Shown here: piece by piece, positions 1 to 26,577 of the stretch
Layout: every line of letters begins with the position of its first letter
Position numbering within the stretch: position 1 is the stretch's first letter
Source: a virus
Lineage: Duplodnaviria; Heunggongvirae; Uroviricota; Caudoviricetes
Length of the DNA: 35,235 nt
Virus record (IMG/VR): IMGVR_UViG_2850756110_000003
Strand: one strand, 5' to 3'
Made by a program: the position numbers and the translations under genes
Notes under the pieces: model-generated
What the model was told of the DNA's origin: nothing
The model's database searches: none
What the model saw: the letters and a program-made list of their open reading frames with translations, nothing else

Positions 1-1461
1 TTACTTCACGGAATATTTCGCCACGGTCGCTTTCGCTCCATGCGCTAATAAAGACAAGTACGCTTCCGTCACTTTTGCAGTAAACAAGCTATTGTCTGGC
101 AAATCATCACCAAAGATTGCCTTAATCGCCAGCAATGACTGGACGCGCGCTTTCCCTTCGGCACTACTTTGTACAGCCTTCTGAATAACAGGTAACAGTG
201 GGTCACTGATTTCTATCGGATTTCCCTGTTCATCAACACCACCGACATAACGCATCCAACCCGCGACGCCCAGCGCCAGCAGATCGAACTTGCTGTCATG
301 CGCCAGATGCCAGCGAACAGAATCCAACATCCGCTGTGGCAATTTCTGGCTACCATCCATCGCAATCTGCCAGGTTCGATGACGTAACGCCGGATTGCTA
401 TAGCGTTCAATTAATCGGTTAGCGTAATCTTGCAAATCAACGCCCTGCACTTTCAGCGTCGGCGCTTGTTCCTGCAACATCAAGCCATACGCCGCATAAC
501 GATAATGTTCATCTTCCATGCAGTCATTAATGTGCTGATATCCGGCAAGATAACCCAAATACGCCAGGAATGAATGACTGCCGTTGAGCATGCGCAACTT
601 CATCTCTTCATAAGGCAGCACATCACTAACCAGTTCGGCTCCCGCTTTTTCCCATTCTGGACGTCCGGCAACAAAGTTATCTTCTATTACCCACTGGCGG
701 AAAGGTTCACAGGCAACGCCCGCAGGATCGCGCACACCGGTAAGTTGTTCGATTTTCGCCAGCGTATCCTCTGTCACTGCGGGCACAATACGGTCCACCA
801 TTGTTGATGGGAAAGTCACGTTATCTTCGATCCATTGTGCCAGTTTTACATCAACAGCTTTCGCGTATGAAGTGACAACGTCACGCATAACATGACCGTT
901 TTCTGGCATGTTGTCACATGACATGACGGTAAATGCGGGAAGTCCTGCCGCTTTACGGCGGGCCAGCGCCTCAACAATCACCCCTGTTGCTGTTTTCGGC
1001 TGGTGGGGATTTTGCACGTCGGCAGCGACCATCGGGTGATCGAACATTAACTGTCCGGTCGCCGGAGAGTGGAAATACCCTTTTTCGGTGATTGTCAGAG
1101 AGACAATCGCGATTTGCGGTTCACACATCGCAGCCAACACGGTTTCTAAGCCATCCATCTGTACGTGCAAGGCTTTTTTAACGACGCCAACGACGCGAGC
1201 CGTCCACGCATCGGCCGACATTTCCGCAACGGTATAAAGATTATCTTGCTGTTGTAAATCGGCAATTTGCTGTTCGCCGCCGATTAAGTTGACCTCATAA
1301 TATCCCCAGTCACTGAAATGTTCTGTAGCAAGAATATCGGCATACACGCCCTGATGCGCACGGTGAAATGCACCAAAGCCTAAATGAACAATTCTTGGGG
1401 CTAGGTTATTACGATCATAAACAGGGAGTGTCGCTTTTGCTGATAACAAATTATTTCCCAT
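1..1461 (-). CDS. ydfI: Mannitol-dehydrogenase-family oxidoreductase (YdfI-like; putative D-mannonate/fructuronate oxidoreductase), complete 486 aa
   Basis: 486-aa [40 protein letters not shown]...; N-terminal GFGAFHR dinucleotide-binding motif typical of this family; stop at 1-3; AAGGA RBS upstream of the ATG. Match to E. coli YdfI recalled from memory. Confidence 0.85.
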
Positions 1462-1511
1462 AACAATTCCTTAAATTTAAATATGGCAAGCTATATGTTT
1501 TGTTATATGAA

Positions 1512-1542
1512 TAAAAATCCCCTCTCCGGTAAGAGAAGGGAT
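1512..1542 (-). terminator. Putative rho-independent terminator after the ydfJ-like fragment
   Basis: Imperfect inverted repeat ATCCCCTCT-ccggta-AGAGAAGGGGAT at 1517-1542, followed on the minus strand by a T run (plus-strand AAAAA at 1512-1516). Confidence 0.5.
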
Positions 1543-1549
1543 TGAGGGT

Positions 1550-1704
1550 TTACAGACTTCTGGAAGGTTGCGCAGCTCTTACAACACGCGGTTGATCTTC
1601 CGCAGCGTCTTCCAGCGCACTTAAATCACGGTCTTTCACCTCTGGCATTTTCAGCGCAGAGATTAAACCAATCACTGAATATGCCATGATCATAATGGCG
1701 ATCG
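1550..1704 (-). pseudogene. ydfJ: 3' fragment (about 51 codons) of an MFS transporter gene (ydfJ-like), cut by IS1
   Basis: Minus-strand frame open from the IS1 boundary (1704) to a TAA at 1550-1552, translating ...IAIMIMAYSVIGLISALKMPEVKDRDLSALEDAAEDQPRVVRAAQPSRSL; hydrophobic transporter-like C-terminus; position next to ydfI as in E. coli K-12 (memory). Confidence 0.5.
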
Positions 1705-1719
1705 GGTAATGACTCCAAC

Positions 1720-2223
1720 TCACTGATAGTGTTTTATGTTCAGATAATGCCCGATGACCTTGTCATGCAGCTCCACCGATTTTGAGAACGACAGTGACTT
1801 CCGTCCCAGCCTTGCCAGATGTTGTCTCAGATTCAGATTATGTCGCTCAATGCGCTGAGTGTAACGCTTGCTGATAACGTGCAGCTTTCCCTTCAGGCGT
1901 GATTCATACTGCGGCCAGCCATCCGTCATCCATACCACGACCTCAAAGGCCGACAGCAGGCTCAGAAGACGCTCCAGTGTGGCCAGAGTGCGTTCACCGA
2001 AGACGTGCGCCACAACCGTCCTCCGTATCCTGTCATACGCGTAAAACAGCCAGCGCTGACGTGATTTAGCACCGACGTAGCCCCACTGTTCGTCCATTTC
2101 AGCGCAGACAATCACATCACTGCCCGGTTGTATGCGCGAGGTTACCGACTGCGGCCTGAGTTTTTTAAGTGACGTAAAACCGTGTTGAGGCCAACGCCCA
2201 TAATGCGTGCACTGGCGCGACAT
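1720..2223 (-). CDS. insB: IS1 InsB frame (made as InsAB' by -1 frameshift)
   Basis: 167-aa ORF; A6C slippery motif TTAAAAAACTC intact on the minus strand and insB is in the -1 frame relative to insA. Confidence 0.9.
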
Positions 2224-24554: not shown

Positions 24555-24557
24555 ATA

Positions 24558-25472
24558 TCACGTCAGCTGGTAATGACGATCGGGAAGAATTTTTGCTGGA
24601 ATTTCGGCTTCATCGTTCATCTGTAAGAGGTCAATTTCAATAGCGTTGCAGATGGCATCCAGCGGTAAATCATTGTTTTCAGTACCGAACGGATCTTCCA
24701 GTTCTTCCGCCAGACAATCCAGCGAAATAAAAGTGTAGGAAATCAGCACAGAGATAAAAGGCGTCATGTAATGCAGGTCCACGACCAGCGCGAACGGCAG
24801 CATGATACAAAACAGATAAACAGTACGATGCAAAATCAGGGTGTAGGCAAAGGGAATTGGCGTATAGGCAATGCGCTCGCATCCTGCCAGGACCGCTGAA
24901 ATATCATTAAGCCGATCGTTGAGGCTAATAAACAGGATTTCTGAAAGCTGCCCATTGCGGCGCTGAACCGCCAACCACTCCCCCATTATTAACAAGATAC
25001 GGTTAGCTGGAGAGTTCGAAGCCAGTACAGGCTGAAGATCTTCAGTCTTGAGATAATGAGCCAGCACTTCCGCCTGTGGCTGTTTGCGTAATGTCATGCG
25101 TAAACAGTGGGCGAAGGCGATTTGCAGCCTGGCAAACTCCCTTACACTTGCCGAATCCGGCAATGTCGTTTTTACCTCACGTAGTAACGACCGTGAGGCA
25201 ATCATCAACTGTCCCCAAAGTTTTCGCGCTTCAACGTAACGGGCGTACCCGGCATTATTACGAAAACCAAGAAAAATGGCGATGGCGACACCGAGAATGC
25301 TGAACGGTGCGAGGGTGAATTTGATGCCCAGATGCGTGTACCAGGGCAGCATGAAAATAACAGCGATAGAAAAGAGAAAATTGAGTAGTAAGCGCGAGGA
25401 TATCTTGGATAATACTGAGCCGTGCCAGACAAAAATACGGCGCAGCCAGTGTTGTTGTGGACGAACAATCAT
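24558..25472 (-). CDS. yneE: Bestrophin-like (UPF0187) inner membrane protein YneE
   Basis: MIVRPQQHWLRRIFVWHGSVLSKI...; several hydrophobic helices; ATG at 25472; convergent with tam as in K-12 (memory). Confidence 0.85.
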   Translation of the reverse strand: MIVRPQQHWLRRIFVWHGSVLSKISSRLLLNFLFSIAVIFMLPWYTHLGIKFTLAPFSILGVAIAIFLGFRNNAGYARYVEARKLWGQLMIASRSLLREVKTTLPDSASVREFARLQIAFAHCLRMTLRKQPQAEVLAHYLKTEDLQPVLASNSPANRILLIMGEWLAVQRRNGQLSEILFISLNDRLNDISAVLAGCERIAYTPIPFAYTLILHRTVYLFCIMLPFALVVDLHYMTPFISVLISYTFISLDCLAEELEDPFGTENNDLPLDAICNAIEIDLLQMNDEAEIPAKILPDRHYQLT

Positions 25473-25629
25473 GGTTATCTTCAGGCGTGGAAAAGTCGCC
25501 CTATTAAACGTGATTACGATCACATTCTCAAGACGCTACTTACAAATTACCTACAAGCTTACAACATTAACAGGCGCTGCATGTGGCACCTGTTAATGAT
25601 AAAGGCATATAGGATGTTGTAACTAATAT

Positions 25630-25661
25630 AGTGAAATAAGAAACCCGGTCGAAACCGGGTT
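25630..25661 (-). terminator. Rho-independent terminator downstream of the uxaB 3' end
   Basis: Perfect inverted repeat AACCCGGT-cgaa-ACCGGGTT at 25642-25661, followed on the minus strand by TCTTATTTC. Confidence 0.55.
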
Positions 25662-25668
25662 CAGAGTA

Positions 25669-26577
25669 TTAGCACAACGGGCGTACAGCTTCGCGCATCC
25701 CTTTTTCAAGAATCGCATCCAGGTCATTAGCAACCTGCTCGACCAGACCAGGCACTTGCGTCAGGTCCTGCTCCCAGTGGTCTTTTTCTGCCAAAACAAT
25801 CGCTACCAGTTCCGGGGTGCCGATAACACGGTCACGATGCTGGCTCCAGAGTTGCTGATAACGTTCCAGCCAGTGTGCATCGTCCTGTACCGGATATGTT
25901 TCTCCGTTACGCTCACCGCGATAGAAGGCAATCAATGCCGTTAATGCGAAAGTAAGGCGCGCCGGAAGTGTGCCGTTTGCCTTCTGCCCTGCCAGCAGCT
26001 GCGGCAGGATGCGGGTGCGGAACTTGGTCATACCGTTGAGCGCGATAGACAGCAGCTGATGCTTAATGTACGGGTTACGGAAACGCCCGGTGACTGCACT
26101 GGCGAAAGATTCCAGTTCATCACGAGGCAAATCCAGTACCTGAATAATTTCTTCGTCGATGGCTTTTTCAACGAATGCGCAAATTTCAGCATCGTTCATC
26201 GCTTCACCTACGGTATCCAGCCCTGCCTGGAACGCCACCGGCACCAGCGCGGTGTGCGCACCGTTGAGGATTGCCACTTTGCGTTCTTTATACGGTTTAA
26301 TATCGTCAACAATCAGCACATTGAGCGGATATTTGTCCAGGCGCAGCTCAGTCGCTAAGGATTTCGGCCCCTGAATCACAAACAGGTAAAAGTGTTCAGC
26401 GGTGTCGAGAAAACCATCGTGATAACCCAGTTCTTCTTCCAGTTTAGCCACTTCACCACCCCGGTAGCTGTCGGTGTTGCGCGTCAGCTTAGGCAGAGTG
26501 ACGGACGTCACATTACCCACTTCGTTTTCACCATCCACAAACAGCGTAAAAAAGCGAAGATGTTTTGGCACAGCCAT
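25669..26577 (-). pseudogene. uxaB: Chimeric ORF: P2-like tail tube (FII) N-terminus (about 42 codons, roughly 26455-26577) fused in frame to the C-terminal part of altronate oxidoreductase UxaB (roughly 25669-26454)
   Basis: [41 protein letters not shown] | [32 protein letters not shown]...[13 protein letters not shown]...[21 protein letters not shown]...; the second part is the UxaB C-terminus (memory). Start overlaps the sheath gene stop by 1 nt. Confidence 0.8.

Follow-up and report, generated by a model that had tools for sequence, protein, structure and literature searches.

IS-element joints and an IS-free uxaB fusion in the rearranged Qin-site/terminus region of a Shigella genome

The virus record IMGVR_UViG_2850756110_000003, a stretch of 35,235 nucleotides (nt) that we call the window, is a piece of a Shigella chromosome in which blocks of the Escherichia coli terminus region and two dead prophages follow each other in an order that differs from that of E. 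coli K-12. In our reading, the Qin-site/terminus region was remodelled in several steps by insertion sequence (IS) elements together with an IS-free joint, and we put the probability of this history at about 0.55. Two joints are truly novel, i.e., a hybrid IS4 in front of tam, and a direct connection of uxaB with the tail tube gene of a P2-like prophage in which no IS is involved. An initial annotation had proposed an IS-mediated inversion or deletion across the interval between ydfJ and tam. The change in gene order was borne out by the block map described below; the proposed type of event was not.

Block order and orientation in the source chromosome

For the block map, the window was compared by megablast with K-12 MG1655 and with annotated genomes of E. 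coli, and assemblies were traced by exact-protein look-ups with the product of the chimeric uxaB open reading frame (ORF), YdfI, YneE, Lom, Tfa and FI. In K-12, tam (+), yneE (−) and uxaB (−) are followed after about 20 kb by ydfI (−) and ydfJ' (−), and then by the Qin prophage (1,632,277-1,652,745), ynfP and rspB. The K-12 gene order given in the initial annotation, which placed tam, yneE and uxaB on the opposite side of ydfI/ydfJ from Qin, is correct on the MG1655 map. The source chromosome reads K-12 1,625,258→1,631,157 (dcp–ydfI–ydfJ'), IS1, a lambdoid prophage remnant with ipaH, IS4, K-12 1,607,350→1,610,015, a P2-like remnant, and K-12 1,795,211→, with ihfA and pheT beginning about 260 bp past the right edge of the window. 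Along the K-12 map, the path goes from 1,625 to 1,631 kb, through the prophage, back to 1,607 and on to 1,610 kb, and then forward to 1,795 kb.

The ydfI block (window 1-1705) corresponds to K-12 1,629,453-1,631,157 with 98.1% identity. It contains the complete ydfI of the mannitol dehydrogenase family (1-1461, − strand; a 486-aa ORF, 98.1% identical to K-12 1,629,453-1,630,913) and the last 156 nt of ydfJ (1550-1705, − strand). The K-12 alignment stops there at 1,631,157 and IS1 starts at 1705, which agrees with the earlier description of ydfJ as cut by IS1 at the edge of a prophage. The tam island (23800 to 26454/5) corresponds to K-12 1,607,350-1,610,015, again with 98.1% identity and with the same strand relationship as in K-12. 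Its tam gene (23800-24554, + strand) lacks the ATG and the first base of codon 2, the K-12 gene starting at 1,607,346 and the window resuming at 1,607,350. The adjacent yneE (24558-25472, − strand; 304 aa) is complete, and of uxaB, which encodes tagaturonate reductase, the 3' 787 nt with codons 223-483 are left (25669-26454, − strand). This 2.7-kb tam'-yneE-TerC-uxaB' island stands between the two prophage remnants and is cut off from lsr/dif and from dgcF...mgtS.

All K-12 blocks have kept their orientation: the ydfI and tam blocks align plus/plus with K-12, and the ihfA-pheT block beyond the window is K-12-oriented as well. A single inversion should show as a segment reversed with respect to both flanks, with inverted IS copies at both ends, and no such segment is present. 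It is excluded because one block would be flipped. A single deletion is excluded because tam sits to the right of ydfI while dcp–ydfI survive; K-12 1,625,258-1,631,157, which lies between uxaB and ihfA in K-12, is retained to the left of tam. The passage from the phage through IS4 to tam steps back along the K-12 map with no change of orientation, and is therefore a joint of the duplication or excision-reinsertion (block-transposition) type. For this order, the alternative to block transposition is a sequence of at least three inversions. Three joints lack the signature of a simple insertion, namely IS1 at 1705-2472, the second of the two IS4 copies in the window, and the junction between uxaB' and the P2 tube gene.

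The window is 100% identical to the Shigella chromosome CP026805.1, in agreement with the Shigella-like genome that had been suggested before. The whole arrangement occurs in at least eight independent assemblies, including CP026807, CP026823, CP026834, CP045784, UYIT01000006 and AKNG01000040. Its left half (ydfI-IS1-ipaH phage) was seen in CP034935, and its right half also in CP026832, CP026840, CP026842 and CP026825, of which CP026832 is S. dysenteriae 14 ATCC 49346 (PMC10132075). The exact yneE allele was found by exact-protein look-up in the rearranged context only. The source lineage is Shigella and includes S. dysenteriae 14, and the arrangement is fixed in it.

The joints to the left of the window are further breakpoints of the terminus region and are of the inversion type. 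In CP026805.1, K-12 1,493,734→1,490,447 (trg...gapC', inverted) is followed by IS600, then toward the window by K-12 1,623,210→1,622,723 (dgcZ'-mgrR-mgtT, inverted) and IS1, and finally by 1,625,258→1,631,157, which leads into the window. The scrap of inverted K-12 sequence between IS600 and IS1, with the dgcZ' end, mgrR and mgtT, measures 488 bp and lies 5-10 kb left of the window; the gapC'-cybB-trg block from 1.49 Mb adjoins it.

The joints at tam and at uxaB

Both IS4 copies in the window have the properties of the family, i.e., a length of 1426 bp, TAATGCC... terminal inverted repeats and a DDE transposase of about 442 aa (PF13006 and PF01609), and they are 99.4-99.5% identical to annotated IS4. 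Copy 1 (20393-21818, + strand) is flanked by a 13-bp target duplication, CGGAAATCCGGTG, at 20380-20392 and 21819-21831. It is a late simple insertion, because its target is duplicated and because four sister loci (L005, L006, L008 and L010) lack the element and carry the 13-mer once. Copy 2 (22374-23799, − strand) forms the phage/tam joint, with AAAAAACGGGGCATACTGCCC on its left, in the spacer between phage genes E and FI, and CTGACTGGAACCCC on its right, in tam codon 2. No repeat of 11-13 bp is found between its flanks, GGCATACTGCCC and CTGACTGGAACC. Copy 2 is a bona fide IS4 that is not a simple insertion; it is a hybrid element and a true rearrangement joint. The statement that IS4 joins the remnant to tam-yneE-uxaB' therefore holds for copy 2 and fails for copy 1.

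The two flanks of copy 2 each resemble one side of an ordinary IS4 insertion. On the left, the order AAAAAA-CGG-GGCATACTGCCC|IS4, i.e., an A-run, 3 nt and 12 nt, is the same layout as in two complete IS4 targets, and this target is part of a hairpin that resembles a terminator and follows the capsid gene E. For the right side, a query of the predicted ancestral joint, composed of the lsrG-tam leader, ATGT, CTGACTGGAACC and the right end of IS4, was matched at full length in one of the 5,426 E. coli genomes searched, E. coli FDAARGOS_1249. In that genome (NZ_CP069459.1 865,826-867,251), IS4 is inserted at tam codon 2 at the same nucleotide and in the same orientation, with the same right flank and with the normal K-12 order on both sides (lsrG-IS4-tam-yneE-uxaB-dgcF). 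In FDAARGOS_1249, however, the element entered by simple insertion, with the 12 bp CTGACTGGAACC duplicated and lsrG on its left, whereas in the window the phage is on the left and there is no duplication. The IS4 at tam in FDAARGOS_1249, which is not a close relative, points to a hot spot or an old polymorphism, not to a direct ancestor. By its sequence, copy 2 resembles a composite of two canonical insertions, of which one contributed the left half and the other the right half.

At the other edge of the tam island, uxaB' passes at 26454/26455 directly into the first 41 codons of a P2-type tail tube gene FII (26455-26577, − strand). Position 26454, which the initial annotation gave as the end of the rearranged region, coincides exactly with this junction. 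There is no IS at the joint. Comparison with K-12 and with the P2-like prophage of E. coli ETEC4088 gives a 2-bp microhomology, with ...CTT(CA)TCG of K-12 and ...TGC(CA)CCACC of P2 combined to ...CTTCACCACC in the window. An IS-related origin of the new order, as first proposed, is supported, with IS1 and IS4 at the other joints, and does not extend to this edge. The resulting chimeric ORF (25669-26577, − strand; 302 aa) consists of tube codons 1-41 and UxaB residues 223-483 in frame, matches both Phage_tube and Mannitol_dh_C in Pfam, and starts at an overlap with the stop of the sheath gene. The fusion is head-to-tail and is a deletion-type joint. Its protein is found on 156 contigs with the source label S. 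dysenteriae, and the ORF would serve as a lineage marker.

A search with the N-terminal 222 aa of UxaB for the reciprocal tube chimera gave none among the best 120 matches. A 224-aa UxaB fragment (P0006) that ends 5-7 nt from the breakpoint of the window was considered as the reciprocal joint and rejected as a coincidence. Its contig carries marB...dgcF-'uxaB and ends at an IS629-like element, its allele is 100% identical to that of O111-type Shiga toxin-producing E. coli (STEC), and its cluster mixes partial sequences from contig ends. In the Logan contig SRR6954241_328 (L046), from a STEC O111-type strain, an IS629-like element at 10673 breaks uxaB after codon 224.

The ipaH prophage at ydfJ and the proposed history

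The lambdoid remnant (2473-22373) carries ipaH on the + strand and then, on the − strand, tfa, stf, lom, J (split), I, K, L, M, H, T, G, V, U, Z, FII and FI, as assigned by Pfam matches; it has no head, lysis, regulatory or integrase genes. Through IS1 (1705-2472, − strand; 768 bp), ydfJ' is connected to phage sequence that begins 316 bp upstream of ipaH. The element is present in all sister genomes, and its flanks, GGCGATCG and TTTTTTATA, share no 9-bp repeat. Junction queries returned no E. coli with IS1 at the same position in ydfJ or upstream of ipaH, and seven with IS1 elsewhere in ydfJ.

The gene ydfJ is a classical lambdoid attachment gene. More than 12 E. coli, including GPEC606 and KW21, have at ydfJ a 91%-similar lambdoid prophage that is collinear and co-oriented with window 1-20145. 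The prophage in the window likewise abuts a 3' fragment of ydfJ with its tail-fibre end proximal. Because more than 12 E. coli carry a similar prophage at ydfJ in the same orientation, the contact between ydfJ and the phage, which had been described as part of the rearrangement, is probably native and represents the normal layout of the Qin site. IS1 has taken the place of the attachment (att) junction on the ydfJ side, and the window does not include the integrase half of the phage. Homology to K-12 Qin (1,632,277-1,652,745) was confined to an IS2 copy at window 33505-34210, and judged by this comparison, the phage at ydfJ is not Qin.

The ipaH gene (2790-4541, + strand), of the ipaH1880/'ipaHd' class, is a pseudogene with two 1-bp deletions, near 3018 and 3368, as compared to the intact 583-aa gene of enteroinvasive E. 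coli (EIEC). It is intact in the sister genomes CP026807, CP045784, UYIT01 and AKNG01. PacBio homopolymer errors could account for the deletions, although a 374-aa ipaH fragment is common to four assemblies. The tail-tip gene J (7305-10783, − strand) is split in this lineage into ORFs of 791 and 368 aa, compared to a single 1159-aa gene in EIEC prophages, and in some sister genomes an IS1 or IS110-family element is located inside J.

The history that we propose would start with an ipaH-carrying lambdoid phage in ydfJ. An IS1 would have deleted the phage/ydfJ junction, together with about 1.1 kb of ydfJ' and with the end of the phage as far as a point 316 bp ahead of ipaH. Two like-oriented IS4 elements would then have inserted at typical targets, one in the hairpin between phage E and FI and one at tam codon 2, and homologous recombination between them would have produced the hybrid IS4 that links FI to tam. 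This exchange predicts a partner joint on the lsrG side in which IS4 is flanked by AAAAAATGTCTGACTGGAACC|TAATGCCAGTCAG, with the other flank reading GATCGGCATTA|GGCATACTGCCC plus 3-4 nt and a T-run, followed by the phage capsid gene. As a separate step, an illegitimate IS-free event at the 2-bp microhomology joined uxaB codon 222/223 to tube codon 41 and took away the 5' part of uxaB and whatever lay between both points, the tube gene belonging to the P2-like prophage beside ihfA. ISSso6, IS4 copy 1, and the IS1 and IS2 of the P2 remnant entered later, each by simple insertion.

A single IS-mediated inversion or deletion across the ydfJ-tam interval, as initially annotated, is very improbable. 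IS1 and IS4 do stand at two joints without target duplications, and Shigella is rich in IS-mediated inversions (PMC8072062), but ydfI (−), tam (+)/yneE (−)/uxaB (−) and ihfA (−)/pheT (−) all keep their relative K-12 orientation, and dcp–ydfI (K-12 1,625-1,631 kb) are retained left of tam. Moreover, inversion cannot fuse two same-strand genes head-to-tail and in frame, as are FII and uxaB. Three or more inversions between inverted IS copies, with the intermediates erased by IS turnover and with no duplication or excision-reinsertion, would agree with the inversion-type joints that IS600 and IS1 bound just left of the window and with the dominance of inversions among published Shigella rearrangements (PMC8072062). 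We nevertheless consider this unlikely, as three reversals, in which the same IS4 would have to serve repeatedly as a breakpoint, are needed to swap blocks without a flip, and the IS-free direct uxaB::FII joint cannot come from inversion. An assembly artefact deserves practically no weight. Joins that span IS elements depend on long reads, and short-read contigs stop at IS1 and IS4, so a chimeric contig through repeated IS copies had to be considered, as the initial annotation had done. However, the identical joins in at least eight assemblies come from different strains and sequencing centres, and hundreds of short-read contigs read straight through the IS-free uxaB::FII joint, which excludes a chimera.

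For the ydfJ edge, another origin of the prophage has to be weighed. Window 2473-17686, including the 316 bp before ipaH and the region encoding the ipaH N-terminus, shares 99.4% identity with the ipaHd prophage that the EIEC-like E. coli FDAARGOS_943 and VL46 carry at yecD/yecE, and the same stretch is 97-99% identical in four EIEC-like strains. The prophage could accordingly have integrated at yecE and reached ydfJ' when one IS1, in ydfJ, recombined with another that lay upstream of ipaH; the missing target duplication of IS1 also speaks for this. We regard this as a possible but rather unlikely route. It needs one extra long-range joint, from 1,631 to 1,951 kb, and the coincidence that the tail-fibre end landed in ydfJ in the orientation of E. 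coli ydfJ prophages. The tail module is also found next to pgl with another ipaH class, in the draft AERM01, so that the identity of the module does not fix the site. The ipaH block has been recorded next to yecD, ydfG-dcp, ybhE, icd/phoQ or yebU in different Shigella lineages, and the ipaH1880 block next to ydfG-dcp in some Shigella (PMC8072062, Suppl. Table 5); of these neighbours, icd, ybhE and yebU have the look of sites at which phages integrated independently. We prefer, by about 2:1, a phage that integrated natively at ydfJ and then lost the junction in an IS1-associated deletion to one that was imported from yecE through an IS1 x IS1 exchange.

Several points weigh against the multi-step history. 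Other strains have the tail module (99.4%) at yecE or beside pgl, and neither att nor integrase is left, and because of this the case for a native position at ydfJ is one of synteny and parsimony. FDAARGOS_1249 is not a close relative, with 98.5% identity over the shared 4 kb. The partner junctions, lsrG-IS4-phage head and the phage-head side of the E-FI target, were not found, and for this reason we infer the IS4 x IS4 recombination from one hybrid element. Exact look-ups with the IS4 transposase returned only unrelated sites (the corA-uvrD region and fiu) and the window locus itself. Look-ups with Tfa, Lom and FI did not find an un-rearranged version of the phage, and each complete genome with the exact FI has the IS4-tam joint adjoining. 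Three or more inversions would lead to an identical arrangement. The K-12 interval 1,631-1,795 kb must lie elsewhere in the genome, because it includes essential genes.

Late insertions, TerC and comparison with known loci

The remaining IS elements are of recent origin relative to the joints. ISSso6 of the IS110 family (17692-19208, + strand; 99.9% identical to annotated ISSso6) lies between V and U and is absent from CP026807 and others, in which its flanks are contiguous (17691|19209). The P2-like remnant (26577-35235) is at its native btuC/ihfA site, carries sheath, D', cargo ORF, ogr and hok, and is collinear at 99.6-99.8% with the one next to ihfA in ETEC4088. Its IS1 (29563-30330) has a 9-bp target duplication, TAAGTGGCC, and its IS2 (33505-34834) a 5-bp duplication; both are absent from ETEC4088, which has single copies of the targets. 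Because they are absent from sister genomes or from ETEC4088, these two elements, ISSso6 and IS4 copy 1 are later simple insertions.

The two IS4 copies (window 20393-23799) are inverted relative to each other and enclose just 555 bp, with the FI gene. The lineage is polymorphic for copy 1. Inversion of the FI segment between the two copies, or folding of the pair into a large hairpin, is conceivable. The cargo ORF of the P2 remnant, between a truncated gpD and ogr, is 1039 aa long in ETEC4088 and annotated there as 'MFS transporter' (L004 10824-13943). In the window (30156-33173, + strand) IS1 and a stop divide it into pieces of 637 and 367 aa. Pfam and PADLOC scans of this ORF gave no matches, and it may be a phage accessory or defence gene.

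The tam island carries in the yneE-uxaB spacer (25607-25629, + strand) the 23-mer ATATAGGATGTTGTAACTAATAT, which is identical to K-12 1,609,157-1,609,179, contains the core GTTGTAAC, and which has the sequence of TerC. This identity is consistent with published Ter data (PMC8347550), and a predicted Tus-binding TerC is intact on the island. Between it and the lsr/dif side of the K-12 map stands the IS4 joint at 23799/23800. In E. coli, dif lies about 15 kb left of lsrG. When dif and other Ter sites were sought in all fetched loci, dif was found in the FDAARGOS_1249 locus only and was absent from every Shigella locus fetched. Altered terC/dif layouts have been described for several Shigella (Goodall et al., 2021, PMC8347550). 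It is conceivable, if quite doubtful, that the hybrid IS4 uncoupled TerC from dif and that the island was kept next to ihfA-pheST in unchanged orientation by selection for an oriented TerC and a working fork trap. Retention of the island because of TerC is speculative. If true, it would provide an explanation at the level of breakpoints for the altered Shigella layouts (PMC8347550). The separation of an intact TerC from dif bears on the upkeep of the fork trap in heavily rearranged termini, and is the sole angle of wider interest here.

Beyond this, the locus is an example at the nucleotide level of IS-driven decay and reshuffling in Shigella. The genes ydfJ, tam and uxaB, the latter for hexuronate catabolism, are inactivated, and an ipaH effector gene is left in a dead prophage. 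The chimeric P2 tube::UxaB ORF and the IS joints could mark the clade that contains S. dysenteriae. IS-mediated chromosomal rearrangement in Shigella was reportedly described by Yang and co-workers in 2005, and high rates of IS-driven rearrangement have been found since (Seferbekova et al., 2021, PMC8072062). Like the rearrangements in the latter study, the present locus has IS1, IS4, IS600 and IS110-family elements at synteny breakpoints, with ydfJ, tam and uxaB as pseudogenes. Unlike them, the focal change is not an inversion, and one edge of the island is a microhomology joint without an IS.

K-12 Qin is similar in that a defective lambdoid prophage abuts the 3' part of ydfJ beside ydfI, with its tail-fibre/cargo end proximal. 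The remnant in the window, however, has no Qin homology and carries ipaH in place of ynfT-ydfK-pinQ, and here the att junction is replaced by IS1 and the distal phage half by IS4-tam. The ipaH1880/'ipaHd' prophage at yecE of S. flexneri, S. sonnei and EIEC shares ipaH, the 316 bp upstream and 15 kb of tail genes at 99.4% identity. It differs in that here the neighbour is ydfJ' via IS1, the dinI-like gene and the att region are absent, the U-Z-FII-FI module is only 83-85% identical, and ipaH has the two 1-bp deletions. The TerC context is altered with respect to E. coli, as in the strains of Goodall et al. (2021, PMC8347550), and the 23-bp site is intact here; that study gives positions and orientations only, for other strains, whereas here the breakpoints flanking TerC are defined. 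Taken together, the window is an ordinary IS-driven mosaic of the Shigella terminus and the result of a known kind of event. The arrangement can already be found in many public genomes, and the literature tabulates part of it.

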